Shown here one piece after another: positions 359-14,239 of a DNA stretch of 55,099 bases. This DNA is from a virus (Duplodnaviria; Caudoviricetes). The stretch lies in the IMG/VR virus record IMGVR_UViG_3300020473_000035, positions 1 through 55,099 of that record; one strand, 5' to 3'. A model generated the notes under the pieces. That model ran no database searches. It had not been told where the DNA came from and saw only the letters and a program-made list of their open reading frames with translations. How positions within the stretch are numbered: the stretch's first letter is position 1; each line of letters starts with the position of its first letter. A program made the translations under genes and the position numbers.

Positions 359-359
359 T

Positions 360-1079: not shown

Positions 1080-1263
1080 TGATAACCTCCAACCATTTCT
1101 TGGGTTCCCAAGCTTGTTCTTGGTAATCAAACCAATACACACACACGCGAGTGTTACGAGGATCGCTGTAGTCTTTCATTTTGACCACCACGCCAAACTC
1201 GGCTTTGTTCCCTGCTTCTCGGCTGTACTCGCCAGGCATTATTACCAGATCACCGACTTTCAC
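1066..1263 (-). CDS. MKVGDLV-family small protein
   Basis: MKVGDLV...GVVV...LEVINESR; GTG start in junction motif. Confidence 0.8.
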   Translation of the reverse strand: MKVGDLVIMPGEYSREAGNKAEFGVVVKMKDYSDPRNTRVCVYWFDYQEQAWEPKKWLEVINESR

Positions 1264-1426
1264 TTATAACCTCCACAGGCTGAAGATGGTGACGAATAAC
1301 GGTCATTATAGAGCCATGCCAAAAGAGTCTTGCGACTGGCCGCCCGCGCTCTGAATGCCATCCGAGAATAATGCCGGTGCCCCGCACTGTTCCCCACTTG
1401 TGTTTGACCAGATCACCGACTTTCAT
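1250..1426 (-). CDS. MKVGDLV-family small protein (58 aa, not in ORF track)
   Basis: Hand-translated MKVGDLVKHKWGTVRGTGIILG...VEVISESR. Confidence 0.8.
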   Translation of the reverse strand: MKVGDLVKHKWGTVRGTGIILGWHSERGRPVARLFWHGSIMTVIRHHLQPVEVISESR

Positions 1427-1580
1427 CACTTACAACCTTCAGTTCCCACGGTCGAAACCACATACGTTGTTCGGGGAATCTCGCGAACACAATGCGAAAC
1501 AACGGGCCATCATGCTGCAACGCTTTCGCCATAACAACACCGAAACCATAGTCACAATGTACTATATCACCTATTTTCAC
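1413..1580 (-). CDS. MKVGDLV-family small protein (55 aa, not in ORF track)
   Basis: Hand-translated MKIGDIVHCDYGFGVVM...LKVVSDESR. Confidence 0.8.
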   Translation of the reverse strand: MKIGDIVHCDYGFGVVMAKALQHDGPLFRIVFARFPEQRMWFRPWELKVVSDESR

Positions 1581-1755
1581 TTACAACCTCCAATATAGCA
1601 TATGTCGCGGTGAAGCCTTCGCCGTCAAGACCGAGACAGTCATACGTCGTCACACTGCGCTCTTGAAAATAATCGAAGGACTCGCGCACTCTCACAATAA
1701 TACCCATCAAGTCGTCAGAGTGCCCGACAACACGCACCAGATCACCTATTTTCAC
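1567..1755 (-). CDS. MKVGDLV-family small protein
   Basis: MKIGDLVRV...GIIV...LEVVSENR. Confidence 0.8.
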   Translation of the reverse strand: MKIGDLVRVVGHSDDLMGIIVRVRESFDYFQERSVTTYDCLGLDGEGFTATYAILEVVSENR

Positions 1756-1909
1756 TTATAACCTCCCATTCGGTGGGATCGAGCCACCATGATCGCTTTC
1801 CTTTGTACTGTCCTTCAAGTTCAAAAACCTGATAGTGTCCCGGCATGACTTTGATAACAATCCCACGTGGGCCACCGTCTTTATACTGGACCAAATCACC
1901 GACTTCCAT
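1742..1909 (-). CDS. MKVGDLV-family small protein
   Basis: MEVGDLVQY...GIVI...WEVISENR. Confidence 0.8.
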   Translation of the reverse strand: MEVGDLVQYKDGGPRGIVIKVMPGHYQVFELEGQYKGKRSWWLDPTEWEVISENR

Positions 1910-2093
1910 TGGCAACCTCGTAATAGTTAGCATGATCGCGGATCACTCTCCCGTCCGTCAACAAGATCTGAATCAAGATACGCCCGCCGGGAAGGAAGCC
2001 GCTCCAACTCTTAAGCAAAACGCCCATATGACTTTCTCCATTATTGCGGATGATCCCCTCTTCATTGCTCTTGATCAGGTCGCCGATTTGCAT
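1896..2093 (-). CDS. MKVGDLV-family small protein
   Basis: MQIGDLIK...GVLL...YEVANGSR. Confidence 0.8.
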   Translation of the reverse strand: MQIGDLIKSNEEGIIRNNGESHMGVLLKSWSGFLPGGRILIQILLTDGRVIRDHANYYEVANGSR

Positions 2094-2305
2094 TAAACGC
2101 TTTCCTCCAAAGGTTTGAGGTGCTTACCGGGAATGTGAAACCCGTACATGATGCCATTAACAATAAAACGCACTTGGAAGTGGGGTAATCCGTCATCGGT
2201 CGCATCACCGGGGATCCATTCTTTAACCAGAAGCCCGATATTGCCCTCGATACGGGAATAACCCCGATCAGGGTGGACTTGAACCAGATCACCGACTTTG
2301 ATCAC
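2093..2305 (-). CDS. MKVGDLV-family small protein
   Basis: Probable GTG start MIKVGDLVQV after GGGAG; ORF can extend to 2419. Confidence 0.7.
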   Translation of the reverse strand: MIKVGDLVQVHPDRGYSRIEGNIGLLVKEWIPGDATDDGLPHFQVRFIVNGIMYGFHIPGKHLKPLEESV

Positions 2306-2410
2306 GCTCCCAGAAGCCCCCAGAGCGCCACAGGAGCCGCTTGAGCGGCTTGTACGACCCTGGACAGCCTGGAGGCGTGTGGAGTGCCCTGAAGGGCTTT
2401 GTGAGGCTTG
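2301..2410. other. 10-bp-phased GC repeat tract (candidate DNA-wrapping/strong gyrase site)
   Basis: cagaagcccc/cagagcgcca/caggagccgc/ttgagcggct...ggaggcgtgt/ggagtgccct/gaagggcttt/gtgaggcttg. Confidence 0.4.
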
Positions 2411-2415
2411 TACGC

Positions 2416-2625
2416 TCATGCGCTTGCAGGCTCCACGGTAGCGGCGAACACGTTGGCAAACTGCATCTCAAGATCGGGCGTCATGTTGCCATCGGCGCGG
2501 GTCTTCTGCATCTCCGCGAAAAGTCCCATTTGAAGCACCATAGCGTTCAGCGAGGTCTGGGCGCGCTCCAGGGGTCCGAGAGCGGGCTGGGTAGAAGTAG
2601 AGGAAGAAAGGGCTGTATCAGTCAT
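2416..2625 (-). CDS. hypothetical protein
   Basis: 69-aa ORF, GGAGA RBS. Confidence 0.7.
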   Translation of the reverse strand: MTDTALSSSTSTQPALGPLERAQTSLNAMVLQMGLFAEMQKTRADGNMTPDLEMQFANVFAATVEPASA

Positions 2626-2666
2626 TTAGTAGTCTCCGAGAAAGAAGAGGGAAGGAAAAGGTTTGT

Positions 2667-2951
2667 TTAGCCTTGCGCGAGGATCGCGGCAAGCTGGGCG
2701 GCGGTAAGGTGCTCAACGTTGATCGTCTTCACCTTGTGGACGGTGATCTCGGCTCCAGGCTTGCGAGCGGCGCGGATAGAGCCACCATCACAGGCAAGGA
2801 CGTATTCGCCACGGTTCGACTTGCGCGGACGGAAGGTGCCACCAGCCAGCTTGATACCTGCTTTCTTAGCGGCTGCGCGAATCTGGCGCTTGCCATCATT
2901 CCAAGAAACAGAGGAAGAACCAGGGGTAGAAGAGAGAAGTCCGATTTTCAT
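2667..2951 (-). CDS. small basic hypothetical protein
   Basis: First ORF downstream of promoter at 3008-3061; start MKIGLL chosen. Confidence 0.65.
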   Translation of the reverse strand: MKIGLLSSTPGSSSVSWNDGKRQIRAAAKKAGIKLAGGTFRPRKSNRGEYVLACDGGSIRAARKPGAEITVHKVKTINVEHLTAAQLAAILAQG

Positions 2952-3007
2952 AGGGTCAAAGTCCTGGGAAGGAGGGGAGCGACGGTTAAACCTCAACCGT
3001 CAAAGAC

Positions 3008-3061
3008 ATTATCTCACATGCGAACGAAAAGGTCAAGAGAAGTCTGTCAACTAAATGTCAA
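3008..3061 (-). promoter_or_regulatory. triple-TTGAC early promoter element A
   Basis: TTGACA-N5-TTGACA-N8-TTGACC-N17-GATAAT. Confidence 0.8.
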
Positions 3062-3279
3062 GAGATTTTCTCAACCCACATCGGGTGAAACTTCAGGATG
3101 GAAGTACCAAACTGGACACGGTATAGAATCTCGCCTTGTCTCCATGGGCGTTCGTCAGGCGCAACGACTTCCACGATCAAGCCCGTTCGGTGCGCGGGCA
3201 TGTCGGGGTCATGCGTACCTGGGCGGATCCTGACGAGATCGCCCACTTCCAAAGGTTTATTTCGGGTCTTCGTATCCAT
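3058..3279 (-). CDS. MKVGDLV-family small protein
   Basis: LEVGDLVRI...TGLIVEV...YRVQF. Confidence 0.75.
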   Translation of the reverse strand: MDTKTRNKPLEVGDLVRIRPGTHDPDMPAHRTGLIVEVVAPDERPWRQGEILYRVQFGTSILKFHPMWVEKIS

Positions 3280-3466
3280 CGGGGGTTGTTTGGGGCATCA
3301 AAAACGAAGGAACATACTCGTTTTCTGGGGTATACGGCTCAAGCTCCATAGGCGGGAGCGCTTCGAGGATCTGATCGAGGATGGCGCGAAGGTATGCAAT
3401 ATCCTCCTCGATCTCGGCGTCTTCCTTGGCTTTTCGGTACTCTGAAAGGTTTACAAGGTTGTCCAT
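3257..3466 (-). CDS. acidic hypothetical protein
   Basis: MDNLVNLSEYRK start with GAGG RBS, TAATG coupling. Confidence 0.7.
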   Translation of the reverse strand: MDNLVNLSEYRKAKEDAEIEEDIAYLRAILDQILEALPPMELEPYTPENEYVPSFLMPQTTPDGYEDPK

Positions 3467-3777
3467 TAGAACGGCACCTCTTCCATCCATCCAGTGCCGG
3501 AAAGCGGCGATACATCCCAGACTTTCGGGTGCATGACCAGATCAGCCACGCCCTTCGCCAGTCCGACATGAACGCTGGTGGTGTGGGACTGGAAAGTGCC
3601 GGTAGCAGCGGTGTAATCAGCGACAACGCACGCATTACCGGCGCGCATTCCGATCTTCAAGCCATACGAAAATAGAGCTTTGCCGTCTGTTGTCAGGGCG
3701 CGCTTGGAACTGTGTGCGGGCTGACCTTTAGACCAGCGCTCGATCACGCCACGGTTGTTTGTTCTGATTGATTTCAT
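3466..3777 (-). CDS. hypothetical protein
   Basis: 103-aa ORF, GAGG RBS. Confidence 0.75.
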   Translation of the reverse strand: MKSIRTNNRGVIERWSKGQPAHSSKRALTTDGKALFSYGLKIGMRAGNACVVADYTAATGTFQSHTTSVHVGLAKGVADLVMHPKVWDVSPLSGTGWMEEVPF

Positions 3778-3791
3778 AGGTTTGTCCTCTC

Positions 3792-5063
3792 TTATACGTC
3801 AATCGCGATGACGCGCTCTTGGGTTTGGAAGTAGGGGCGATCTGCATACTCTTTGGTGGTCATCCACATCCGTTGGCATGCGCTTGAAATGGGCTTTGGA
3901 GCCATCATATCGGTGAGGATGATGTGACCGTCAAAGTTGTGCTCATTGACATAGCGGGTGGGCGCATTAAAGCAGGTTCCACCGCACATAACGCGCTCCC
4001 ATACGCGGGTCTGACCTTTCTTCCAGACATAAATCTTGTCTTCACCGACCACTGAATCGAAGGGGATCACGGTGAACTCGGCAACATCGGCAAGCTCATT
4101 CAACTCGGAGAAGAACGCGGCAAGCATGCGATCATCCACGGATCCGCTTTGATCGATGCTAATGGCGATCTTGGCATGGCGACGAACGCGCTTGCCTGGG
4201 TGGATGCGAGGAAAACGACGGTTCAAGCGTCGAGGCGTGGAGCGGCGATCTGAACGCTGGGAGGTCTTGACGAAATAACGCAGTACCTTCCTCCAATCTA
4301 CGCGGGTGGTGATGCGGTCCATGATCTCTTTACGCATGCCAGCCGAAACAGATCCCCAGTTGCGGGCTTTCTCCGCGTCTTCTGCGGCTTTCTTGACGGC
4401 TTCCTTCAAGCGCTCTTTAGCGATCTCGTTCGCGGTGCCATCGGTGTCACCGAAAGCGTCGTGGTCGTCGAAAGAGTCCATTCCACCGAAAGGATCGCCA
4501 TTCCCAGGCTGACCCTGACCGCTTCCAGGCTCGCCGGGTTGCCCCTGACCATCGCCTTCGCCGCCCTCTGGATCGCCTTCGCCCATCTTCTTAAGAGCTT
4601 CCAGATACCATTCGTAAGTCATGTTTGCGGGAAGGTCAGCGAACGGTCCTTCGCCTGGAAGGCAGCCTTTCATCGGCTCGCCTGAAGGCATGAGAGGACC
4701 GGGATCGCTCTCACATGGCAGTTTGCCAACCATCTCGGGCAGACCGTTGATCGCAAGGTCCATCGCGATATTGTCGATGCGGCGGATGCCCTCGGAGGGC
4801 TTGCGACCCGTGACATGCTCCAGAATGATGTGATAGAACTCATGCATCAATACGCCAAGTTTATGCTCGTCTTTCAACTGGGCGAAGAACTCTGGATTGT
4901 ACATAAGCTCGAACTGCTGGCGATCAGGGTTGACGCGCACGCCAGCGGTCGGGATCGCGGTCGTCGGGGTCTTGTCGATCCGCCGCGACAACGACGCGAA
5001 AAACGGCTCCTGCATGAGCAGGCGAGCAGTGTGAAGATTAAGGTTGAAGGGGGCTTCAGACAC
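3792..5063 (-). CDS. metallopeptidase-VWA domain protein (DUF2201-like, MoxR partner)
   Basis: HEFYH zincin motif; DQSGS MIDAS, GGT and ILTD VWA motifs; G/E/P-rich linker. Confidence 0.85.
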   Translation of the reverse strand: MSEAPFNLNLHTARLLMQEPFFASLSRRIDKTPTTAIPTAGVRVNPDRQQFELMYNPEFFAQLKDEHKLGVLMHEFYHIILEHVTGRKPSEGIRRIDNIAMDLAINGLPEMVGKLPCESDPGPLMPSGEPMKGCLPGEGPFADLPANMTYEWYLEALKKMGEGDPEGGEGDGQGQPGEPGSGQGQPGNGDPFGGMDSFDDHDAFGDTDGTANEIAKERLKEAVKKAAEDAEKARNWGSVSAGMRKEIMDRITTRVDWRKVLRYFVKTSQRSDRRSTPRRLNRRFPRIHPGKRVRRHAKIAISIDQSGSVDDRMLAAFFSELNELADVAEFTVIPFDSVVGEDKIYVWKKGQTRVWERVMCGGTCFNAPTRYVNEHNFDGHIILTDMMAPKPISSACQRMWMTTKEYADRPYFQTQERVIAIDV

Positions 5064-5089
5064 GGGGCAACTCCTTGATCATATACCTA

Positions 5090-5143
5090 AGTATACAGGA
5101 AGAATCAAAAAAGGTCAAGCGATCTTTGTCAAGAGAATGTCAG
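5090..5143 (-). promoter_or_regulatory. triple-TTGAC early promoter element B
   Basis: CTGACA-N5-TTGACA-N8-TTGACC-N17-TATACT. Confidence 0.8.
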
Positions 5144-5421
5144 GACTGCTCATCTTCGTTAAAAGCGGCTTCGATCTCGGCAATGTCCGCCACGGTCATC
5201 TTCTTCTCGGCTTTTCGACGCTTGTTTTGAGCAGCCATCAGCTTGCGGTATCGGCTCGGAGTGTGCTTGCAAACGGCGATATTCTCGATTCCGATGCGCT
5301 CCATGCGTCGAAGGGATTCATTGGATGCCGCGAGAGTATCGGGCTTTGTAAGGATGGTTTCGGTCGCTTTGATGCGCCCGTCCACGATGGCGATGTCAGT
5401 TTTGCTCACGTAGTACTTCAA
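5140..5421 (-). CDS. hypothetical protein
   Basis: TTG start after AGGAGA, downstream of promoter C. Confidence 0.65.
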   Translation of the reverse strand: MKYYVSKTDIAIVDGRIKATETILTKPDTLAASNESLRRMERIGIENIAVCKHTPSRYRKLMAAQNKRRKAEKKMTVADIAEIEAAFNEDEQS

Positions 5422-5446
5422 GGTCGATCTCCTAACTTGATGTCTC

Positions 5447-5500
5447 ATTGTCTCATATGCGAGAGAGAAAGTCAAGGTTTTTTTGTCAAAGGAATGTCAA
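5447..5500 (-). promoter_or_regulatory. triple-TTGAC early promoter element C
   Basis: TTGACA-N5-TTGACA-N8-TTGACT-N17-GACAAT. Confidence 0.75.
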
Positions 5501-5560
5501 GAGAATGAGGGTCAATCTGGGTTCATGCGCGGCATGCCAGGAAGACCGAAAAGGTTTATT

Positions 5561-5660
5561 TGAGCGCTCTGTGAGGCTCCTGAAGGCTTGCTAACGGCTC
5601 CCAGGTATGACGACAGCCCAGAGCGCTCACAGGGGCTCACAGAGGCTCCTGGGCGCTGCT
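5561..5660. other. 10-bp-phased GCTC tract (candidate DNA-wrapping/strong gyrase site)
   Basis: GCT(C/T/G)/GCCC at 5566, 5576, 5586, 5597 then 5616, 5625, 5635, 5645, 5655. Confidence 0.45.
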
Positions 5661-5861
5661 ACGGCGGTACTCCGCAGCCAGTTGTAGATCGTGCTTCCAG
5701 AATGACCGTCCATTCTCGAAAACCCTGTAAAGACGCCGATCATCAGTGGATCCACGCCCATAGGTCGAGCGCCCACTTGGGCGACTTTCGAGGATAATAG
5801 CGGTTTTTCCTGTTTTAACACGGATTAGAAGCTCTCCAATCTCAAAGGTTTGTTTGTTCAT
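5637..5861 (-). CDS. SH3/KOW-like small protein (MKVGDLV-related)
   Basis: FEIGELLIRV...AIIL...YRVF. Confidence 0.7.
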   Translation of the reverse strand: MNKQTFEIGELLIRVKTGKTAIILESRPSGRSTYGRGSTDDRRLYRVFENGRSFWKHDLQLAAEYRRSSAQEPL

Positions 5862-6091
5862 AGGGGATCGCCCTCCTTGATCGGCATGAGCGCATCACCG
5901 TGAAAAATCATCTCCAAGCCGCTCTTTAACCACTTGATGCGGTATCTCGGCTTGAAAAGTCCATCACGAGCGACGACGCCCACAACCATGCCAGGACCAG
6001 ACTTTTCAGTAAAAGCTGAATCGGGCGATCCCCTCGCGAGGCGGTTGGTCATGTAGACCAACTCGCCCAGAGAGTAGTTGTAATCCTCCAT
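5858..6091 (-). CDS. SH3/KOW-like small protein (MKVGDLV-related)
   Basis: YSLGELVY...GMVVGV...YRIKW. Confidence 0.7.
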   Translation of the reverse strand: MEDYNYSLGELVYMTNRLARGSPDSAFTEKSGPGMVVGVVARDGLFKPRYRIKWLKSGLEMIFHGDALMPIKEGDPL

Positions 6092-7168
6092 TTAGCCACC
6101 CAGGATGGTCACCAAGTGCTCGCTAACACGGACGCCGCTGGTAGTGTCGGCTTTGTGGAGCGCGACCACGTTGGGGACCATATCAGCGTCACCCAGGACG
6201 GTCCAGAGCTTCATAGCCACCTCGGAAGGCAGGGAAACGAAGTAATCGGCGAGGTTCTTGATCTGAACGTCGGTGAGTTCCGTCTTGAAGGTTTCAGCCG
6301 CCTCGAACTTCTCGATCATGGCGGCGTGATCGTTGATGCCCCACTCGGAAGTCTTGGCGATCTCGCCGTTGTCCAGCAGATCTTCGATGGTCACTTGCCA
6401 GGAGTAGTTGACCACGAAGTCCTTCAGTTGAACAGCCGCCTCGAAACCGAGGAATGCATTGGCGAGGTTGAAAAGGAGATCGAGATCGCCCTTCTCCTCG
6501 AAAACGCCCGCTGGAGTAGCGGTATCGTTGAAGCGCTTCCAAGAGCGACGAGAAGGATAAACCTTGTTCGGCTCGAAGTCGCTGCGATGCTCCAAGTGGG
6601 TGCGGTTCTGGTTGATGAAGTCCCAAACGACGCTTGCAACCTTGCCATTCGCCCACTTGAGCCAATCTTCGTCAGACGGATCCACGTCGAAGACGGTCCA
6701 GCGGTCGAGTTCGGCGGGATCCATCTCACCGACTTGGTACTGGGCACCGTGCTCGCCACCGTTGACGGCAGCGATGATCAGGGTTTCAGGGTGAAGATGC
6801 CAGCCATTGATCTTGCGGCTATCGGTAAGCTCGAAAAGACCCTGGCGAACCTCCATAGTCGCGCGGTCGACCTCATCCAAGAACAGGACGACGGGCTGCT
6901 CGCAAGCGGTCACGAGCCAATCGGGAGCGTTCCACGTGGTAGCCTTGCGACCATTGATAGCGGTGTCCGCCGTATCTGGCAGACCGAGAAGATCGCCCTC
7001 GGTCATCTGGGAAGCGCGGCGCTCGACGACGGGAAGCTGGCGATCACGGGCGATCATGTAGACCACCTCGGATTTACCGACACCGTGACGACCACGGATA
7101 AGGACGGGCAAACGCGCATCGAGGATGTGGGGGGCGACAGAAAGGAAGGTGGCGAAGTCTACAGCCAT
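6092..7168 (-). CDS. MoxR-type AAA+ ATPase
   Basis: Walker A GRHGVGKS, Walker B LFLDEVDR, MDPAELDR, SRRSW sensor; near VWA gene. Confidence 0.9.
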   Translation of the reverse strand: MAVDFATFLSVAPHILDARLPVLIRGRHGVGKSEVVYMIARDRQLPVVERRASQMTEGDLLGLPDTADTAINGRKATTWNAPDWLVTACEQPVVLFLDEVDRATMEVRQGLFELTDSRKINGWHLHPETLIIAAVNGGEHGAQYQVGEMDPAELDRWTVFDVDPSDEDWLKWANGKVASVVWDFINQNRTHLEHRSDFEPNKVYPSRRSWKRFNDTATPAGVFEEKGDLDLLFNLANAFLGFEAAVQLKDFVVNYSWQVTIEDLLDNGEIAKTSEWGINDHAAMIEKFEAAETFKTELTDVQIKNLADYFVSLPSEVAMKLWTVLGDADMVPNVVALHKADTTSGVRVSEHLVTILGG

Positions 7169-7211
7169 GTGGTTTCTCCAGGGGAGTGTGAAGTTTTTAG
7201 CTTACTCTGTA

Positions 7212-7265
7212 AGTATACAGGAAGAAAGAAAGAAGGTCAAGTGTTTTTTGTCAAGAGGGTGTCAA
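7212..7265 (-). promoter_or_regulatory. triple-TTGAC early promoter element D
   Basis: TTGACA-N5-TTGACA-N8-TTGACC-N17-TATACT. Confidence 0.8.
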
Positions 7266-7274
7266 GCCTCGATT

Positions 7275-7496
7275 TTACCCATTGCAGGCGGGATGACCCC
7301 AGTTGTTATACTGCCAATCGCTGATCTCTTGATCTTTGCACAGGCTATCAGTCCAGTTGTTCCACGCTTCGCGGCGAGCGGGATAATCGGGATCGCCGTC
7401 GCGCTCCCATCGCTCTTGGATCAGGGGGAGAATGTGAACCTCGAAATATGCACATGCATCCTCGAAGGTCATGACGTAGGGAAGGTTTTTAGCCAT
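7275..7496 (-). CDS. hypothetical phage protein
   Basis: MAKNLPY start after AGGAG; AWNNWTDSLCKD motif. Confidence 0.75.
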   Translation of the reverse strand: MAKNLPYVMTFEDACAYFEVHILPLIQERWERDGDPDYPARREAWNNWTDSLCKDQEISDWQYNNWGHPACNG

Positions 7497-7527
7497 TGGC
7501 GAACTCCTATTGCTCAATGATGGATCC

Positions 7528-7581
7528 ATTATCTCATAGGCGAGAAGAAAGATCAAGGGTTTTTTGTCAGGTAAATGTCAA
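7528..7581 (-). promoter_or_regulatory. triple-TTGAC early promoter element E
   Basis: TTGACA-N5-CTGACA-N8-TTGATC-N17-GATAAT. Confidence 0.75.
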
Positions 7582-7612
7582 GAGTGAAAAGAGTAGGAAG
7601 AAAGTATTAAAA

Positions 7613-7792
7613 GAGGTGGTGGGGAGTGCCGCTGTCCTCGTCGCGCCACATGACCAGCCGCGTTTTCACTGCCCGCTGTGGGGCGCGCTCACCTAAGCCC
7701 CCATTCCCGAAGGCCTTATTATCCTTACAGTGAGCAAGGGTTCATTCACGGCTTTGAACCCCGGTTTACATTAAAAATCTCCCCACCACCTC
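7613..7792 (-). ncRNA. putative structured ncRNA (~180 nt, unclassified)
   Basis: Perfect 14-bp closing inverted repeat (7613-7626/7779-7792), three internal stems, UUCG and GAAA tetraloops on minus strand, U-run after. Confidence 0.6.
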
Positions 7793-7835
7793 ATTACAGG
7801 CCACTTTATAGATCGCGCATAATACGCTTTCCTCC

Positions 7836-8645
7836 TTATTTCTTCTTCTTTGGGGTGCGAGCGCGCTTAAGCTGGCGCTCCTCGCAGATAAAGGTTTGCG
7901 CTCCACCGATGGGAAGGAGCTTATAGAGCTTGTTTCCGCGTGCTGCGCTGGTGGGCACTGCGATATTGGTGGCGATCACCATCGCGAGATTGTCTTTGTT
8001 AGGGCAGCTTTGAGATTGTGCGTAGGTCGCACCAGCACCAAGGGCCACCATGCTCCCCACTGCATATTTCGGCTCGGCAAACCACCCAGCGTAGATCTTA
8101 CGGATGAACTTGTTATCAGTCACGCGGTTGTACTCGTCCATAGTGGGAACCATGGAAGTATCAGCGAAATAAGCGGCCACCTGTTTGCCGTAATACCCGC
8201 TGCTGCGGTAGTATGACATGGCAATAGCATAGCGCTCTGCTTTCTCGTCATTCCACGCGGCATACCACTGATCGCGGGCGTCCATAGCTTCATCGCTGTA
8301 TTTCCCCTGGATCTTCTCCAGAATCTCCTTCTGACGCTCGGAAAGGTTGCGGCCGCCCAAAAGCTGGGTTCGGATGCTGCTAACAAAGCGGTCATCCCAT
8401 GAGCCGTTGTCCACAGCGGACACGCGCCCCTTGAGCACGTTGATCTCGTCCAGACCCTCGGCAGGTTCGGGGCGCGTAGCATAGCGCTCTTCCATCTGGA
8501 CGAAGCAGCGACGGCGGCCAGCGGTCAGTGAACCCTTGCGCTTGTAGTGGCTGTAAAGGCTCTCCGCAAAGCTGCGATCCCGGTCGGAAACGTAGTCTTT
8601 CGCGAGAAGGGCAGCGAAGCGGTCATGGTAGGTAGTGCGGGGCAT
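7836..8645 (-). CDS. hypothetical protein, two helical repeats plus C-terminal SH3-like domain
   Basis: DRSFAESL..SLTAGR / DDRFVSSI..NLSERQ repeat; YAVGSMV C-terminal domain; AGGAG RBS. Confidence 0.8.
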   Translation of the reverse strand: MPRTTYHDRFAALLAKDYVSDRDRSFAESLYSHYKRKGSLTAGRRRCFVQMEERYATRPEPAEGLDEINVLKGRVSAVDNGSWDDRFVSSIRTQLLGGRNLSERQKEILEKIQGKYSDEAMDARDQWYAAWNDEKAERYAIAMSYYRSSGYYGKQVAAYFADTSMVPTMDEYNRVTDNKFIRKIYAGWFAEPKYAVGSMVALGAGATYAQSQSCPNKDNLAMVIATNIAVPTSAARGNKLYKLLPIGGAQTFICEERQLKRARTPKKKK

Positions 8646-8671
8646 GTGGCTCCTTTGATGATTACTCTGTA

Positions 8672-8725
8672 AGTATACAGGACGCGGAAGAAAAGATCAA
8701 GCCTTTTCTGTCAAGAGAATGTCAA
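8672..8725 (-). promoter_or_regulatory. triple-TTGAC early promoter element F
   Basis: TTGACA-N5-TTGACA-N8-TTGATC-N17-TATACT. Confidence 0.8.
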
Positions 8726-8901
8726 GAACCCTCTTCGAGAGCTTTAACGGCGGGCAAAGTCTCCTTTAGGGCGGTGAGAATCTCATCACACTCCTTCAGA
8801 AAGGGATCCATGCCTTGACCGGTAGCACTGTGCTGGACCGTCGCACGGTAGTGCTGGAGCGCGGACCAAAGAATGGAGCGCTGGCGTTCAGAAAGTTCCA
8901 T
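8722..8901 (-). CDS. hypothetical protein
   Basis: MELSERQ start after AAGGAG. Confidence 0.7.
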   Translation of the reverse strand: MELSERQRSILWSALQHYRATVQHSATGQGMDPFLKECDEILTALKETLPAVKALEEGS

Positions 8902-8928
8902 GTTGTAGTTCTCCTTGAGCATGTATAC

Positions 8929-8983
8929 ATTATCCGATCTTTTCGAGGTAAAGTCAACAGAAAAGTTGTCAAGAGAGTGTCAA
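8929..8983 (-). promoter_or_regulatory. triple-TTGAC early promoter element G
   Basis: TTGACA-N5-TTGACA-N9-TTGACT-N17-GATAAT. Confidence 0.8.
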
Positions 8984-9285
8984 GAACCCCTGACAAGCTC
9001 GTTAAGCCCCCTTGCAAGCTCAATATCGGCTTGCACTTCTGGCTCGGTAAGCCACTCGATAGCACCCTCCGTGATCCCCCAAACGTCCAGCCAAGCGCCG
9101 CCAGGGGTCTGGAAGCGCTCGATAAGCCCCTCCAAAACCAGAATGTCGAGGGTCTGACGAGTCAGATCGTCAGGCTCATCTTCTGGCGCATAGATGTGAT
9201 CGGGGGTGTCGAGGATGCCGGTGAACATGTGGACTTCGCAGGGCGCAAGCTCACAACCGCCGATGTTGAAAAGTGTTTGACTCAT
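8980..9285 (-). CDS. acidic hypothetical protein
   Basis: 101-aa ORF, GGAG RBS. Confidence 0.7.
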   Translation of the reverse strand: MSQTLFNIGGCELAPCEVHMFTGILDTPDHIYAPEDEPDDLTRQTLDILVLEGLIERFQTPGGAWLDVWGITEGAIEWLTEPEVQADIELARGLNELVRGS

Positions 9286-9326
9286 AAGGTTTATTTGCTC
9301 CGTGGTTGAATGAAAAGGTTTGTTTT

Positions 9327-10187
9327 CTACTTCTTCAGGCTCTTGAAGTGCTCGATAATAGCGGGGGATTCTCCATTTTCCCAGCCAGCGGGGGGTCGGA
9401 TGCAGTCAGCGGGGACGCCGCCAAGAAGCTCCACCTGAACATAAGTACCGTCGCTCTGGGTATCCCAGCGACCGATGCGCTGACCTTGGCGTCCCCATCC
9501 AGCCGCTGGACTAAACCGGCGGCGATATTCGCCATCGCCGTCATCCACCCAATGATGTGGAAGTTCGCACACTGAATAACCATTGGTGGTGCCCATTTCG
9601 CTCATGCGCTGGGTGAGGATAATATCGTCATGTGAGTTACAATATGCGATCTGATCCCACTTGACTTTTCTGACGATGGCCGGGCACAATCGACGATCCC
9701 AATGCTCTTCGCCGTTCTCGTCGGTGAAATACCCAGAGGTGCGGATGTTGAGCAGAGCGCCAACGCCGATCCTATTGGCGCGAAGGTTCTCCAGCACGCC
9801 AGCCCGATAAACCTTGTTCGCCTCGATCATGGCGGCCATATCTGTTTTAAGCTCCTGGCACGTGCGGCGAGTATGGCCCAACCCCTCATCAGACCAAGCA
9901 CCGTGCTTGTGCTTGCAGTATGAGCACTTGCGGGTAGGTCCGCGCTTGGTGATCTTCTGCTTTGTAAGCGGATTTGTGCCTGTGCGCTTGCCGATCTTTG
10001 CTGCCAGCGCTTCGATGCGGCGGCTATGATATTCGGCTTCTCCGCCGCTTGCGCGGAGTCTGTCGCGCTCGGCCACGTGGCGCTCGAACTCGCTAACCAA
10101 GTGTTTTGTATATGTCGGGCATGAACGCTTATTATGCCCTCGCTGATAGCACACGCTGCATCTAACTGATCCGTTGTAGTTTCCCAC
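9327..10187 (-). CDS. double CCHC zinc-knuckle protein
   Basis: CSVCYQRGHNKRSC and CSYC...GHTRRTC. Confidence 0.75.
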   Translation of the reverse strand: MGNYNGSVRCSVCYQRGHNKRSCPTYTKHLVSEFERHVAERDRLRASGGEAEYHSRRIEALAAKIGKRTGTNPLTKQKITKRGPTRKCSYCKHKHGAWSDEGLGHTRRTCQELKTDMAAMIEANKVYRAGVLENLRANRIGVGALLNIRTSGYFTDENGEEHWDRRLCPAIVRKVKWDQIAYCNSHDDIILTQRMSEMGTTNGYSVCELPHHWVDDGDGEYRRRFSPAAGWGRQGQRIGRWDTQSDGTYVQVELLGGVPADCIRPPAGWENGESPAIIEHFKSLKK

Positions 10188-10235
10188 GATTTAGCTCCCG
10201 GTTGGAGTGAAAGGTTTTTCTCGACTTGATGACCT

Positions 10236-10289
10236 ATTATCTCATAGGCGGAAGAAAAGATCAAGCCTTTTCTGTCAAGAGAATGTCAA
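10236..10289 (-). promoter_or_regulatory. triple-TTGAC early promoter element H
   Basis: TTGACA-N5-TTGACA-N8-TTGATC-N17-GATAAT; 43 bp identical to copy F. Confidence 0.8.
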
Positions 10290-10579
10290 GCCTCATCAAG
10301 CCCGTCCCAGTGGGCATCTACGAAGCGCTTGGTATTCCGCAGTGCGGAAAGCTCTGGATCCTCGCCGTTTATTTTGGCGCTGGCCACCTGTGCCTCACAC
10401 TCACGTGCAAAGGCGCGGATAAACTTGATCAGTGCGATCTTGCCAAATGCCGCTTTCTTGCCTGTGATCTGACCGCCATAGGGCGGGCGCACGTGCCTCT
10501 TGTGAAGCATCAGCGCGATCTTATAGGCATCATCCAACCCTTTGGTGTCGTCGGTGTCGAGCACAATCGTCATTTTCAT
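10286..10579 (-). CDS. hypothetical protein
   Basis: MKMTIVLD start after GGAGG; KIALIKFIR...LRNTKRFVD weakly reminiscent of L7/L12 C-terminal motif. Confidence 0.7.
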   Translation of the reverse strand: MKMTIVLDTDDTKGLDDAYKIALMLHKRHVRPPYGGQITGKKAAFGKIALIKFIRAFARECEAQVASAKINGEDPELSALRNTKRFVDAHWDGLDEA

Positions 10580-10755
10580 ATTACTACCTCCAGTTCCGTC
10601 CATGGATGGAGCGTGTCTTTCCCAGACGCATCCACTGGACCATTGACGAGCTTGTACCAAGTATTGTCATGATCCTCGGCCACCAGAAAGATGCCCGGTG
10701 TGTTAGGATCCTTGAATCTGACGAGATCGCCCACCTTAATAAATCGCGTCTTCAT
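10576..10755 (-). CDS. MKVGDLV-family small protein (not in ORF track)
   Basis: Hand-translated MKTRFIKVGDLVRFKD...ELEVVI. Confidence 0.75.
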   Translation of the reverse strand: MKTRFIKVGDLVRFKDPNTPGIFLVAEDHDNTWYKLVNGPVDASGKDTLHPWTELEVVI

Positions 10756-10907
10756 GATACCACCTCTATGCCCTCGTAGTGGATGTTATAGCCGCATGCT
10801 GGGCGGCCACTGGCGAACCAGCACACCAGAAAAGAGAGCTTGTGAAGCTCAACGACAACGCCCATCTCGCCGGTACTCTTCCAACGAACCAGATCACCGA
10901 CTTTCAT
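10752..10907 (-). CDS. MKVGDLV-family small protein (not in ORF track)
   Basis: MKVGDLVRWKSTGEMGVVVE...IEVVS. Confidence 0.75.
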   Translation of the reverse strand: MKVGDLVRWKSTGEMGVVVELHKLSFLVCWFASGRPACGYNIHYEGIEVVS

Positions 10908-11074
10908 TGACTCACAACCTCAAGATCACAGGGGGAAGCAATAGTCCTATGTTCAACGTCCAAGCGCTTGACCACATAATCAAGCCCAAGAGGGCAGCTA
11001 TGAAGCCCAACGATCAAGGCGAGTTTCCACCCTTCATATTTGGTTTTAACCTTCACGAGATCGCCGACTTTCAT
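10904..11074 (-). CDS. MKVGDLV-family small protein (not in ORF track)
   Basis: MKVGDLVKVKTK...LEVVSQ. Confidence 0.75.
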   Translation of the reverse strand: MKVGDLVKVKTKYEGWKLALIVGLHSCPLGLDYVVKRLDVEHRTIASPCDLEVVSQ

Positions 11075-11214
11075 AACCTAACCTTCTTCCGGCACAAAGT
11101 TTTGTTTGCTTGCTTCTTGCGATCTGGGTGTCGCCCTCCACCACTGCGATTTCTCGCAAAGGCTTGGACTGCCAACCAGTTGCGCGTTTTCGGGGCTTTA
11201 ACCTTCTTTTTCAT
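11071..11214 (-). CDS. 47-aa highly basic peptide
   Basis: MKKKVKAPKTRNWLAV...GGGRHPDRKK; ATGA-coupled on both sides. Confidence 0.65.
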   Translation of the reverse strand: MKKKVKAPKTRNWLAVQAFARNRSGGGRHPDRKKQANKTLCRKKVRL

Positions 11215-11309
11215 AGCACTGGCTCCATTAGGTAGACGAACCACCAACCAAAATACATCATTCCGCCAAGCATGGCGACAGCCAAAAAGTCTTCAAGTTG
11301 CTCTTTCAT
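11211..11309 (-). CDS. 32-aa membrane micropeptide
   Basis: MKEQLEDFLAVAMLGGMMYFGWWFVYLMEPVL; GGAG RBS. Confidence 0.55.
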   Translation of the reverse strand: MKEQLEDFLAVAMLGGMMYFGWWFVYLMEPVL

Positions 11310-11315
11310 ACTGGT

Positions 11316-11675
11316 TTATTCTCCCTTCAACATCTTGATGCGGCGGACTTGCGCCAGTGATCCCGTTCTAATCTCGAACTCGCCAAAAGCCTCGGCAGCA
11401 CGCGCACGTTGGCGGGCGCGGAGCTTCATCAGTTCACGGGCTTCTACGCCCGCATTGAACATTTCATCCTCACAACTCACCGGGGAATCTCCCCAGCCAT
11501 CGTGATGGCCGGAACTTTCCGCGAGCAGATCATCGCGAAGCTCGTTGAACTCGTTGATCTCGTCGGCTTGTTCCGCAGTCGGAAGACAGCCGCTCATCAA
11601 CGAATGGGTGTGGGTGTCAAGCGCGGTCATGATCATCTCAAGCTCGCGAGGGGTGAAGGTAATAGTGCGGTTCAT
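11316..11675 (-). CDS. hypothetical protein
   Basis: MNRTITFTPRE start after GAGG; N-terminus resembles 8722-8901. Confidence 0.75.
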   Translation of the reverse strand: MNRTITFTPRELEMIMTALDTHTHSLMSGCLPTAEQADEINEFNELRDDLLAESSGHHDGWGDSPVSCEDEMFNAGVEARELMKLRARQRARAAEAFGEFEIRTGSLAQVRRIKMLKGE

Positions 11676-11701
11676 GTGGTCCTCTCTCAAAGTGTGAACC
11701 T

Positions 11702-11755
11702 ATTATCTCATAGGCGAAGGGGGAAGTCAAGGTTTATTTGTCAAGCAAATGTCAA
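11702..11755 (-). promoter_or_regulatory. triple-TTGAC early promoter element I
   Basis: TTGACA-N5-TTGACA-N8-TTGACT-N17-GATAAT. Confidence 0.8.
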
Positions 11756-11934
11756 AGGATCTGGAGATCTTTAGGAAGGAAGGGGCGAGGGTGATTATTG
11801 CTGACCTTCACGTTGCTCATGAAGTATACGTGGCAAATGTTGCCCCACAAGCCAGTTTTTACGATCAGCCCGATAGTTCCCTTTGGAATACCGATACTGG
11901 CGCGTGTAATCTTTACCAAGTCACCGACTTTCAT
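11752..11934 (-). CDS. MKVGDLV-family small protein
   Basis: MKVGDLVKI...GLIV. Confidence 0.8.
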   Translation of the reverse strand: MKVGDLVKITRASIGIPKGTIGLIVKTGLWGNICHVYFMSNVKVSNNHPRPFLPKDLQIL

Positions 11935-12124
11935 TGACTGCCTCCAGATATTTCCAACTGATTTGCCGAACGGGCCACTTAGTAACTCCATTCCACAATA
12001 CCTCGGCAGAGTTATATGCGGGATGGATACCCTCTTTCATCTCATGAAAGAAGATCCTCAACACAACGCCCATACCAAGCCTATCACCGGAACCCGTGTA
12101 TCTCACCAGATCACCGACTTGCAT
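11921..12124 (-). CDS. MKVGDLV-family small protein
   Basis: MQVGDLVRY...GVVL...LEAVNESR. Confidence 0.8.
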   Translation of the reverse strand: MQVGDLVRYTGSGDRLGMGVVLRIFFHEMKEGIHPAYNSAEVLWNGVTKWPVRQISWKYLEAVNESR

Positions 12125-12296
12125 TGATTGTCTCCAATGAATCTATGCGAAAGAAGCGCACGGGCATGCCTTTATAGGTCACGCGCGCATGCTCACCGTC
12201 GAGACAAATGGCAGTTACCAACATCGGTACACCGATAAGAGAGCCTTGGTAGCCACGCGCGATTTTTCGAGGAGTGACCAAATCACCGACTTGCAT
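12111..12296 (-). CDS. MKVGDLV-family small protein
   Basis: MQVGDLVT...LETINASR. Confidence 0.8.
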   Translation of the reverse strand: MQVGDLVTPRKIARGYQGSLIGVPMLVTAICLDGEHARVTYKGMPVRFFRIDSLETINASR

Positions 12297-12635
12297 TTAA
12301 GCCTCCAGCATAACCCTGTTAATATCTACCGTATAGCCATCATAGTTATCCCATGTACACATATTCCACTTTGAAAAAATCTTCCAAAGCTGGCTTGATT
12401 CCATGGTTTTTAAGACGCCCACATCCCAGATTTTTGTAACCTCTTCGTCAGTAGGGCGATTGTCCATATTTCCGCCCCACTTGTCTCGCATTGTGATCCG
12501 CGCCTGTACCTCGTCGTCAACGCCCAAAAAGCAGAATACGTCCGCCAAAGCGCGGAGCAAAGCGCCCTTCTCGGTTAGATGAGTAGAACACGTTAGCTCC
12601 CCGCTGTAGTAAACCTGTGTAACCCAAAGTCTCAC
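12297..12635 (-). CDS. hypothetical protein
   Basis: GTG start overlapping upstream stop, GAGG RBS. Confidence 0.7.
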   Translation of the reverse strand: MRLWVTQVYYSGELTCSTHLTEKGALLRALADVFCFLGVDDEVQARITMRDKWGGNMDNRPTDEEVTKIWDVGVLKTMESSQLWKIFSKWNMCTWDNYDGYTVDINRVMLEA

Positions 12636-12976
12636 GCTGTTGCCCTCTTGGCTTTGCTGTCTGCAAGCATCTTTTCGACCCATGCGCCATCGAACTCGGC
12701 GGCGTATTGGTTCCGCAACACCAGCAGGCTTTCGCCATCCTTGACCTCATTCCGCAGCTTGTAGCCAGGGATCAAGAACTCGGTGCCAGCAGGTGCGCCA
12801 AGAAAAACCTCGCAGATCGCGTAAGGGACGGACTTCCACTTGAAGCGGTTCTCGCCCGTCTTCTTGTCCTTCCAGCTACGCCGAAAACGGCGGAACTGCA
12901 TGTCAACCACGCGAGCCTGGATCATTGTGTCGCTTGTGCGGATCATTACGATGTCGTTTTTGTGAAGATATGCCAT
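12632..12976 (-). CDS. hypothetical basic beta-barrel-like protein
   Basis: 114-aa ORF, AGGAGG RBS, follows promoter J. Confidence 0.8.
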   Translation of the reverse strand: MAYLHKNDIVMIRTSDTMIQARVVDMQFRRFRRSWKDKKTGENRFKWKSVPYAICEVFLGAPAGTEFLIPGYKLRNEVKDGESLLVLRNQYAAEFDGAWVEKMLADSKAKRATA

Positions 12977-13007
12977 GTGCTAAAGCCCTCCTTGACTTTG
13001 TGATACT

Positions 13008-13062
13008 ATTATACGATCTGCGAGCAAGAAAGTCAATCACTTTCTTGTCAAGCAAATGTCAA
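13008..13062 (-). promoter_or_regulatory. triple-TTGAC early promoter element J
   Basis: TTGACA-N5-TTGACA-N9-TTGACT-N17-TATAAT. Confidence 0.85.
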
Positions 13063-13065
13063 CCC

Positions 13066-13440
13066 TCAAAAATCTACGTGGATGCTGGTGTATGGATAGA
13101 TGTTCGCGAAGCCGTAGCCGCGACACTCGATGTCATCCGAGTTTTCACCCGTGCGAACGAAGCGATAAAGCTCAACCGGATCGATTTCTTCACCATCGAT
13201 CTCGATCATGTCGCTGTTATCCAGGCGATCCATAAAGTCCACCAGCGCGCTAACTTCTGCATAGGACTCGTACCACTTGATTTGCGACCATGAGAACAGG
13301 ATCGCATCGTCGCGTTCTTTGCGCTCGTCAACATGCTCATGACACAACGCATGCGCCGATGGGCAGCTTGTGAACGCATGCATCAGCATGCCCTCGATGC
13401 GCTTGTCTACTACCAAAACCACTTCTGAACGATAACCCAC
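13066..13440 (-). CDS. hypothetical phage protein
   Basis: MGYRSEV...KWY...RFVRTGE; GGGAGAG RBS. Confidence 0.8.
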   Translation of the reverse strand: MGYRSEVVLVVDKRIEGMLMHAFTSCPSAHALCHEHVDERKERDDAILFSWSQIKWYESYAEVSALVDFMDRLDNSDMIEIDGEEIDPVELYRFVRTGENSDDIECRGYGFANIYPYTSIHVDF

Positions 13441-13472
13441 TGGCTCTCTCCCTTCTTTTGAGCTTGTGATAC

Positions 13473-13527
13473 ATTATACGATCTATTTCAGGAAAAGTCA
13501 ACCATCAAGTTGTCAAGGAAGTGTCAA
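13473..13527 (-). promoter_or_regulatory. triple-TTGAC early promoter element K
   Basis: TTGACA-N5-TTGACA-N9-TTGACT-N17-TATAAT. Confidence 0.85.
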
Positions 13528-13753
13528 CTGATGATTCCACAAGTTTAATCTCGGATGTGCTGATTTTGTAGAAGCGCCCCATCTGTCCGAGATACACCAG
13601 ATCAACAGCGCCGCCATAGGTTCCAGCGAGATGCCCCATTCCATGGGCAATCATCTCCTCATCTTCTGGTCCGAGAAATCGCGTGGTGTACTCGTCGCGC
13701 ATGACGGTCGCAAGCCCTCCTCGATATTCAACTAAATCGCCTTTCTTATACAT
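13505..13753 (-). CDS. MKVGDLV-related small protein
   Basis: MYKKGDLVEY; GAGGAG RBS. Confidence 0.75.
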   Translation of the reverse strand: MYKKGDLVEYRGGLATVMRDEYTTRFLGPEDEEMIAHGMGHLAGTYGGAVDLVYLGQMGRFYKISTSEIKLVESSVDTSLTT

Positions 13754-13991
13754 CTTTCTTCTCCTCTGATGGCGGACTGGAAAGGATCTCAAACCTTTTC
13801 ATTCCAAAGTGTGATCGCGAAGTGGAGCGCCCGCAATGCACGGGGTACGGCTCGAACCACTCCACAGCAACATGCATCTCACCCGTGGTTTGGTGCCTGC
13901 TGTGCTTGGCTACGTAGCCAACGTGACCAATGAAAGACTGGTATAGCTCACCTTCTTCCAAGCCGACATATTTGATTACTGATCCAAGCAT
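13746..13991 (-). CDS. SH3-like small protein, possibly leaderless
   Basis: MLGSVIKY...GHVGYV; ATG 7 nt after -10 of promoter L. Confidence 0.7.
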   Translation of the reverse strand: MLGSVIKYVGLEEGELYQSFIGHVGYVAKHSRHQTTGEMHVAVEWFEPYPVHCGRSTSRSHFGMKRFEILSSPPSEEKKDV

Positions 13992-13997
13992 GATAGT

Positions 13998-14051
13998 AGT
14001 ATACTCCAGATAAATAGAAAAGTCAATGGTTTCTCGTGAAGAGAATGTTAA
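13998..14051 (-). promoter_or_regulatory. triple-box early promoter element L (degenerate)
   Basis: TTAACA-N5-TTCACG-N8-TTGACT-N17-TATACT. Confidence 0.7.
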
Positions 14052-14239
14052 GAGGAAGATATGATGTTGCGGATCTGCGAGCGACTGACAAGTCCAAAGG
14101 TTTGTTTGCCGTCGTTAATGGTGAAAAGCACATCACCTGCGCGTTGAACAGTGCCGATAATGATCCCCCGCCTCATGGTTGTGAAGGTTCGTCCTGATGG
14201 ATGGTAAGTCTCGAAGGAAACATAATCACCGACTTTCAT
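14048..14239 (-). CDS. MKVGDLV-family small protein
   Basis: MKVGDYVSF...GIII. Confidence 0.8.
   Translation of the reverse strand: MKVGDYVSFETYHPSGRTFTTMRRGIIIGTVQRAGDVLFTINDGKQTFGLVSRSQIRNIISSS

Follow-up and report, generated by a model that had tools for sequence, protein, structure and literature searches.

A family of pseudoknotted structured RNAs in early and stable-RNA operons of uncultured large marine phages

The window analyzed here, the whole 55,099-nt stretch of IMG/VR virus record IMGVR_UViG_3300020473_000035 (estimated to be 30% complete), harbors on its minus strand at positions 7613-7792 an RNA element that belongs to a previously unclassified family of structured phage RNAs. 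Comparison of homologues leaves hardly any doubt that the family is a real and conserved structured RNA. Judged from the aligned sequences, the predicted pairing between the loop of hairpin P2 and a downstream strand is a classical H-type pseudoknot, enclosed by a long closing stem, P1. The element is a strand-specific, accessory module that has no constant partner gene and takes various positions in early and stable-RNA operons. The reading that we favor, with a probability of roughly 45%, is that it serves as an accessory, discrete small RNA that is released from early and stable-RNA transcripts and acts in trans. Two versions of the family are distinguished below, v1, which includes the window element, and v2.

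The fold was assessed in several alignments. A4 comprises 21 sequences fitted by the four-sequence covariance model R1, A5 is a MAFFT alignment of 22 sequences, and A8 contains 32 sequences aligned by the core model R2, which covers 106 positions from P2 through the 3' core and was built from MAFFT alignment A7 of 22 sequences. R2 holds no knowledge of the pseudoknot, so that the A8 alignment is blind to it. The parts of the window element are, from 5' to 3':

7779-7792, minus strand: P1 5' strand of the 14-bp closing stem (from the sequence, the minimum free energy (MFE) fold and homologues)
7762-7778, minus strand: J1/2, a single-stranded AU-rich joining strand that mostly measures 12-22 nt across the family and is longer where a hairpin is inserted; a UA-rich motif recurs
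7738-7761, minus strand: P2 hairpin, with a 7-bp stem (7761-7755/7744-7738) and a 10-nt loop (7754-7745)
7747-7752, minus strand: pseudoknot 5' strand GCCGUG, nucleotides 3-8 of the P2 loop, partner of 7662-7657
7687-7735, minus strand: P3, an optional variable hairpin with a cUUCGg tip, restricted to long forms (absent from L026, L017, L020 and all short forms)
7671-7684, minus strand: P4, a small dispensable hairpin GCCC/GGGC (absent from L082, L075, L078 and L079)
7663-7670, minus strand: conserved A-rich strand AGUGAAAA, just 5' of the pseudoknot 3' strand, with nearly invariant A, T and A columns (A5, A7)
7657-7662, minus strand: pseudoknot 3' strand CGCGGC, partner of P2 loop nucleotides 3-8
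7640-7656, minus strand: UGG and P5, with closing pairs 7654-7640 and 7653-7641 and an irregular apical part
7627-7639, minus strand: purine-rich 3' core GAGGACAGCGGCA, near-invariant, consensus RAGRACAGCGR (A5, A7, A8)
7613-7626, minus strand: P1 3' strand (from the sequence, the MFE fold and homologues)
7609-7612, minus strand: U4 tract directly 3' of P1 (from the sequence)

A sequence-only reading of this DNA had described the element as a structured phage RNA outside the known families, with a protein decoy (6S-like, antitoxin mimic or anti-CRISPR RNA) or a ribozyme as candidate roles, and compensatory changes in homologues had been proposed beforehand as a test. Such changes were found in P1, P2, the pseudoknot and P5 and strongly favor a real RNA, which supports the description as a whole, whereas the internal fold given at that time was partly wrong and missed the pseudoknot. 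In A8, 94.3% of the P2 cells are paired and five of the seven pairs vary on both sides (A5: 94.0%, three of seven). The pseudoknot reaches 96.9% with five of six pairs varying on both sides (A5: 98.5%, five of six), and the two closing pairs of P5 reach 96.9% with variation on both sides in each (A5: 95.5%, two of two), changing among GC, GU and AU and among CG, UA and GC, respectively. Overall, 12 of the 15 pairs in A8 vary on both sides; none of 500 shuffles matched the observed values, and slid controls were paired in 29-47% of cells (28-48% in A5). Cells with G-U outnumber those with A-C in the pseudoknot (22 vs 2) and in P5 (6 vs 1), and both kinds are equally frequent in P2 (8 vs 8). This excess of G-U indicates that the structure forms on the gene-sense strand.

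For the closing stem, all 14 pairs vary on both sides and 94.4% of cells are paired in A4. As A4 was fitted to the structure under test, P1 was given an independent control in which the flanks were swapped between sequences. Native 5' and 3' flanks gave a mean of -28.8 kcal/mol compared to -13.6 kcal/mol for non-native combinations, and the native partner was the best in 19 of 32 rows, the exceptions being mostly close relatives with identical P1. The P1 statistics rest on the R1-fitted alignment together with this control. Among the optional parts, P3 is paired in 83% of cells where present, and P4 in 93% with two of three pairs covarying (A4); P4 loops are often GNRA or UUCG. The core of the family reads GCG-R-Y-RAGRACAGCGR and is followed by the P1 3' strand. 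The A-rich strand has the family form AGUNAAAA and would lie in the minor groove of P2. Pairing of the 3' end of J1/2 with the strand that follows the core, as an additional helix, was unsupported (native -2.40 vs non-native -2.00 +/- 1.73 kcal/mol), and the GC.GCUG/CAGC.GC helices that RNAalifold contributed to the first model were dropped, as they are invariant or broken in half of the sequences and clash with the covarying pseudoknot.

In the window itself, the 14-nt arms 7792-7779 and 7626-7613 are perfectly complementary and TTTT (7612-7609) follows directly, exactly as had been noted from the letters of the sequence. Two further helices reported there are also complementary, GGGTTCA (7761-7755) with TGAACCC (7744-7738), and GCTCACTGTAAG with CTTAGGTGAGC (7735-7687), the latter with cTTCGg at its tip. 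The third, CGCGCC-CCACA/UGUGG-CGCG, had to be replaced: 7687-7677 is literally complementary to 7650-7642 in the window, yet this pairing is missing from the MFE fold and is not kept in homologues. Its 5' part belongs to P4, CGCGGC (7662-7657) pairs with the P2 loop as the pseudoknot, and what had been taken for a GAAA tetraloop is the conserved A-rich strand, which is unpaired.

A 196-nt stretch of the minus strand folds with an MFE of -82.5 kcal/mol compared to -65.0 +/- 4.5 kcal/mol for 200 dinucleotide-preserving shuffles (z = -3.86), none of which was as good. The plus strand of the element also folds well (z = -4.50), so that folding energy alone cannot choose the strand and other evidence is needed. 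This property of the opposite strand would be compatible with a feature other than RNA, i.e. a chance fold, an inverted repeat acting at the DNA level or a small coding region, as would the finding that the P1 arms are an inverted copy of a promoter box in six phages. We regard such an origin as scarcely credible, because it is contradicted by the compensatory changes and by the ratio of G-U to A-C cells in the pseudoknot, and because a pseudoknot is senseless for duplex DNA. Furthermore, the length differences among v1 sequences are not multiples of three and no open reading frame (ORF) spans the element. By simple ORF calling it is contained in the largest gap between minus-strand ORFs of window positions 1-16500 (279 nt, 7557-7835), which agrees with the earlier statement that it fills the largest gene-free gap of the early region.

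The phage lineage was characterized by its proteins. The window encodes a DnaE-type polymerase, DnaB, a class II ribonucleotide reductase, GroEL, an IMPDH/GMP-reductase-like enzyme and adenylosuccinate synthetase, and in addition a MoxR-like ATPase with a DUF2201 VWA partner, which are located close together:

6092-7168, minus strand: MoxR/AAA_5-type ATPase
3792-5063, minus strand: DUF2201 metallopeptidase-VWA protein

The ATPase is 62-90% identical across the lineage and less than 30% identical to that of any cultured phage, and no DNA match to the window was obtained among 50,697 phage records. IMG/VR contains 188 relatives of the ATPase, many of them on contigs of 185-205 kb. With nhmmer and R1, 15 credible matches to the RNA were found among 82 sources near the ATPase, all on the gene strand. 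When IMG/VR was scanned with a loose pattern, at least 118 stretches were returned, and among the 80 loci listed nine were true by the model at E < 1e-5. Two specific IMG/VR patterns yielded 15 and 10 stretches, with five of the first 15 proving on inspection to be coding false positives. R2 added three short forms and, when run over whole records, further copies. The resulting 30 distinct v1 homologues in IMG/VR derive from a lineage of ~185-205 kb marine phages and measure 116-222 nt (median 158), with a P1 of 9-23 bp (median 14). The window element, at 81.9 bits with R2 (other v1: 36-83 bits), possesses all parts that define v1, namely P1, P2 with a 10-nt loop, the 6-bp pseudoknot, CUGG, the closing pairs of P5 and the RAGRACAGCG core. 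One strong v1 copy is present in eight of 13 complete genomes, and the remaining five have none at E <= 0.01. A scan of 185,579 cellular species genomes, using the short-spacing form of the pattern only, gave 18 stretches of which none was credible; the best reached 19.3 bits with R2, compared to at least 36 for true v1, and looks coding on inspection. As far as the data were searched, the family is confined to an uncultured lineage of ~200-kb marine phages with their own transfer-messenger RNA (tmRNA) and transfer RNAs (tRNAs). A tmRNA occurs in 12 of the 13 complete related genomes (G001-G013; e.g. L222:1612-2019 and L218:1929-2349), with tags such as ANNNNHFE..LAA, and ARAGORN detected none within the 55-kb window.

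The element was also compared with catalogued RNAs. Rfam 15 holds 4227 models, including 6S, Y RNA/YrlA, phi29 pRNA, riboswitches, hammerhead, twister, twister-sister, pistol, hatchet and HDV-like ribozymes. At gathering thresholds the whole window matched only four tRNAs, all away from the element, and ARAGORN likewise placed four tRNAs at 16.7-18.0 kb and no tRNA or tmRNA at 7613-7792. The four form a cluster on the minus strand at 16701-18038 (Met-CAT, Arg-TCT, Lys-TTT, Leu-TAA), with a strong promoter-like site close to each. When 7400-8000 was scanned permissively (E <= 10), three chance-level matches appeared, with 16.3, 15.6 and 13.5 bits against thresholds of 50, 35.6 and 75, respectively. 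Permissive scans of 15 loci with relatives returned only tRNA, tmRNA and tmRNA-derived matches, none of which was aligned to the element; in the one alignment that was inspected, the element sits in an unaligned insertion. Neither 6S nor the self-cleaving ribozyme classes of Rfam matched it. The earlier failure to assign the element to a known RNA is borne out by these scans of the window and the 15 related loci. No description of the motif turned up in full-text searches aimed at such motifs. PMC10690425 catalogues 8,495 candidate structured RNAs from IMG/VR without names, and the family may already be listed there anonymously.

A riboswitch is expected to combine a consistent regulated gene class with an expression platform. 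Here the neighbors vary, a promoter intervenes between the RNA and the following gene in the window and its nearest relatives, and no conserved alternative pairing was seen. These points argue against a ligand sensor in which ligand-dependent closure of P1 sets transcription into the next unit, and we consider this role quite improbable. It would be in line with the conserved multi-helix junction, which with its pseudoknot resembles an aptamer, with the U-rich tail that follows P1 in 19 of 30 v1 sequences, and with the short forms, which lie 10-25 nt ahead of the next ribosome-binding site. However, the class of the downstream gene is inconsistent, and a P1 of 9-23 bp (median 14) is much more stable than usual switching stems; typical P1 stems that switch fall far below that stability. 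In SAM-II, preQ1-II and fluoride riboswitches, the loop of a hairpin is paired to a strand farther downstream, ahead of which lies an A-rich stretch. The element shares the H-type pseudoknot and the A-rich stretch with these aptamers but differs in the lack of an Rfam match, its much larger size, its long closing stem and the absence of an associated gene class or expression platform.

All v1 copies lie on the same strand as their neighbors and start 3-43 nt past a stop codon. The gene upstream belongs to a family of 269 amino acids (aa) in seven, of 124 aa in six and of 55 aa in four of 22 contexts, and the genes downstream vary among phages; no v1 neighbor protein had an informative Pfam or PHROG match. 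Next downstream of v1 comes either an early promoter or, for the short forms, a ribosome-binding site at a distance of 10-25 nt. The window shows the following arrangement:

8672-8700, minus strand: sigma-70-like promoter TTGATC-17-TATACT, which would drive the 269-aa ORF and the RNA
7836-8645, minus strand: upstream 269-aa ORF on the same strand as the RNA, which starts 43 nt past its stop codon
7528-7582, minus strand: next early promoter, a CTTGACA box (7582-7571) followed by TTGATC-17-TG-GATAAT (7556-7528)

The 269-aa ORF has no match to a Pfam or PHROG family, and the scan detected no promoter-like site between it and the RNA. In 12 loci that carry the 269-aa gene but lack the RNA, the gene runs directly into the next promoter or ORF without a substitute structure. 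Varying neighbors and the loci in which the 269-aa gene lacks the RNA suggest a self-contained module and not a regulator of one gene. No protein partner emerged when 3,070 ORFs of the 13 complete genomes were clustered, since no family was present in all eight RNA-positive and none of the five RNA-negative genomes; the best pattern (six RNA-positive vs no RNA-negative genomes) belongs to a family without a Pfam domain. G007, which was counted as RNA-negative in this comparison, carries a v2-type copy recognized by eye.

The second version was recognized in two complete genomes as a weak additional R2 match (25 and 23 bits) after an ORF of 121-122 aa and just before the phage tmRNA. It keeps P1, P2, the pseudoknot and CUGG, whereas its 3' domain differs from that of v1. 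A survey of 74 loci collected through the 122-aa protein and searched with R2 at E <= 1 gave 33 matches, all on the plus strand and immediately 3' of the 122-aa ORF, of which 28 are distinct:

L222:1501-1590, plus strand: v2
L218:1501-1612, plus strand: v2
L417:903-982, plus strand: v2
25 more loci (L377-L448), plus strand: v2

Each of the 28 retains 5-7 of the seven P2 pairs and 5-6 of the six pseudoknot pairs. In a MAFFT alignment of 23 sequences, P2, the pseudoknot and an 8-bp P5 hairpin are paired in 88.6% of cells, compared to 34-50% in slid controls, and five of the eight P5 pairs vary on both sides. A tRNA-Gly (14 cases) or tmRNA (seven cases) begins 43-86 nt past the CUAG anchor of v2 in 21 of the 28, which corresponds to a few to a few tens of bases past P1; the tRNA or tmRNA is farther off in four and absent from the locus in three. 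Where v2 is missing, tmRNA directly follows the 122-aa ORF. Further v2-type copies in G001 and G007 were recognized by eye only, and one v1 copy (L217) is situated inside a tRNA cluster. Genomes that possess the family have one or two copies of it, in different operons.

This placement raises the question of a cis-acting transcription element, either an ornate intrinsic terminator or insulator with P1 as its stem, or a nascent RNA resembling put or EAR that makes polymerase resistant to termination and would let transcription continue into later early genes or into the untranslated tRNA/tmRNA cluster. The element is always co-oriented with transcription within operons driven by sigma-70, has no fixed neighbor and occurs in at most two related copies per genome in separate operons. 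A v2 copy has a translated ORF on one side and a long stretch of untranslated tRNA/tmRNA on the other, a setting in which protection from Rho would presumably help. By the measures for intrinsic terminators, the window element has a 14-bp stem with UUUU, at least five T are found among the eight bases after P1 in 19 of 30 v1 sequences (not in the other 11), and the terminator scan called no site at 7000-9000 of the window, neither P1 itself nor any other. The loop of an ordinary terminator comprises 3-8 nt, however, whereas P1 of the window element encloses 152 nt, the structured "loop" in the family amounts to 110-190 nt and the elements to 116-222 nt overall. Efficient termination would also silence the tRNA-Gly that follows 14 of the 28 v2 copies by a few bases, too close to leave room for a promoter, and loci without the RNA have no replacement terminator. 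Across 1-19 kb of the window, 35 promoter-like sites of sigma-70 type were found on the minus strand compared to 18.9 expected, but terminator-like sites were not enriched (20 vs 18.1 expected), so that there are no evident terminators for an antitermination element to override. Nor is the RNA promoter-proximal, being ~900 nt from the promoter at 8700. On balance a cis-acting role of this kind appears unlikely.

HK022 put is present in two copies in two early operons, each made of two plain stem-loops of ~70 nt near a promoter, and the EAR of Bacillus is a cis-acting RNA for processive antitermination. The put RNA is reported to act alone on RNA polymerase (PMC9378689). The likeness to put and EAR is one of analogy only, in that all are structured nascent RNAs within operons and indifferent to the gene that follows. 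Unlike put, the element is 116-222 nt long, is closed by a stem and contains a pseudoknot; it does not lie near the promoter, and a U-tract is frequently found at its end.

In six phages (L092, L032, L033, L026, L017 and L020) the CTTGACA box of the next promoter itself makes up the 3' strand of P1, and the 5' strand is complementary to it. This indicates that pairing of P1 is selected even under sequence constraint and that the transcript must extend into the promoter region. In four short-form contexts (L147:6478-6645 and the same gene in L205, L090 and L076), the 55-aa ORF appears to stop inside J1/2, past the P1 5' strand. If so, translation and RNA folding would interfere with each other.

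The nearness of the family to tRNA and tmRNA genes would also suit a new class of self-cleaving ribozyme, by which early polycistronic transcripts and the precursors of tRNA and tmRNA would be cleaved at defined sites. This possibility is in keeping with the compact pseudoknotted core, in which unpaired nucleotides are almost invariant, with the variation of the optional hairpins, and with the variable gene context and the one or two copies per genome; small self-cleaving ribozymes typically show variable contexts and few copies per genome. On the other hand, no Rfam ribozyme family matched, and the order of helices seems unlike that of HDV-like, twister, pistol and hatchet ribozymes. The 3' domain differs between v1 and v2, which would be unusual for a catalytic core, and RNase P already processes transcripts next to tRNA and tmRNA. 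We therefore hold self-cleavage to be rather improbable.

Among known phage RNAs, species 1 and 2 of T4 (rnaC and rnaD) are nearest by context, being small stable RNAs beside tRNA genes that mature from the same precursor as the neighboring tRNAs. The T4 record annotates them next to tRNA-Arg, and v2 adjoins tRNA-Gly or tmRNA in a similar manner. The window copy, in contrast, is ~9 kb away from its tRNA cluster, and R2 with filters off detected nothing at rnaC or rnaD in T4 68000-76000, where the best score (8.4 bits) lay elsewhere in this 8-kb stretch. GOLLD and ROOL, which occur in phages and prophages and are frequently located near tRNA genes, are large RNAs of ornate structure. The element resembles them as a phage-borne structured RNA near such genes, but they are several times larger and neither was matched in the Rfam scans; homology is not implied. 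Like small RNAs derived from 3' untranslated regions, the element directly follows a stop codon on the same strand, has no detected promoter of its own and ends in a stem and U-tract. Such RNAs mostly regulate by simple base pairing and lack a conserved tertiary core, whereas the element has a covarying pseudoknot and invariant junction bases.

According to the favored reading, in which the element acts as a discrete RNA in trans, host sigma-70 RNA polymerase starting at the 8700-8672 promoter of the window would produce it as the tail of the early mRNA that encodes the 269-aa protein. P1 and the U-tract would then end the transcript or allow it to be trimmed, yielding a stably closed RNA of ~180 nt. 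For v2, an RNase P cut at the 5' end of the adjoining tRNA or tmRNA would free the RNA. The pseudoknotted core with its invariant unpaired purines might provide the surface by which a partner is recognized in trans, and the company of stable RNAs suggests that a component of the RNA-processing or translation machinery, from host or phage, is the likeliest target. A discrete 3' end is supported by the U-rich tails in 19 of 30 v1 sequences, while the early region shows no enrichment of terminators.

Several observations weigh against this interpretation. The U-rich tail is absent in 11 of the 30 v1 sequences, and the identity of the P1 3' strand with the CTTGACA box in six phages implies that termination at P1 is not universal. 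The 55-aa ORF ending in J1/2 in four contexts would couple folding to translation, for which a role in cis fits better. As no protein family co-occurs with the RNA in the 13 genomes, any partner would need to be supplied by the host or belong to the core proteins of the phage. There was no RNA run with the sequence, and three metatranscriptome runs of what may be the source sample gave no reads on 7200-8700, which is evidence neither way.

A passive function would be a further explanation, in which a knotted fold at the transcript end blocks exonucleases and stabilizes the upstream early mRNA or the downstream RNA. The location of the element, after the end of an ORF or immediately ahead of the following ORF or tRNA, and its very stable closing stem are suited to this purpose. 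A simple hairpin would suffice for it, though, and five of 13 complete genomes lack the element and have nothing in its place. The near-invariant unpaired core and the conserved geometry of the pseudoknot, maintained despite ATPase identities of 62-65%, point to a specific interaction and speak against passive stabilization, to which we give little credence.

Pseudoknotted RNA families with good covariation are rare and have often proved to be ribozymes, riboswitches or RNAs with dedicated protein partners. The present family occurs in two versions on a common scaffold with distinct 3' domains, one of which is tied directly to tRNA-Gly and tmRNA genes, and its minimal form of ~116 nt is a small, testable object for how large phages handle early transcripts and the RNA for translation rescue. 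A bolder proposal, speculative and in our estimation unlikely, is a new functional class, either a self-cleaving ribozyme or a factor-independent binder of RNA polymerase or the ribosome, that shapes early transcripts and matures or protects the precursors of phage tRNA-Gly and tmRNA, with a scaffold carrying interchangeable 3' effector domains in v1 and v2. If this were true, large marine phages would use a single P1/P2/pseudoknot scaffold with two swappable 3' effector domains.

Minor features were noted around the element. Between the 269-aa gene and P1, three close relatives (window 7805-7823, minus strand; L061; L003) contain a GGAGG-like motif and ATTATG followed by a mini-ORF of 3-5 codons, which could be due to chance or represent a -10-like box. 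A repeated CTTGACAnnnnC box accompanies sigma-70-like early promoters, preceding the -35 hexamer by ~10-25 nt, at the following positions:

7255-7266, minus strand: CTTGACAnnnnC box
7571-7582, minus strand: CTTGACAnnnnC box
8715-8726, minus strand: CTTGACAnnnnC box
8973-8984, minus strand: CTTGACAnnnnC box
10279-10290, minus strand: CTTGACAnnnnC box
11610-11621, minus strand: CTTGACAnnnnC box
14409-14420, minus strand: CTTGACAnnnnC box

The pattern of the box matches eight times in the window, seven times on the minus strand, compared to 1.75 expected matches, and relatives often double it (CTTGACA..TTTACA/TGACA). It is a candidate for an UP-like element or a regulator site. The region at 2-10 kb, which comprises the RNA and early genes, has a G+C content of ~54-55% compared to 41-50% beyond 12 kb of the window, and the GC skew is near zero at 2001-10000 and negative elsewhere.

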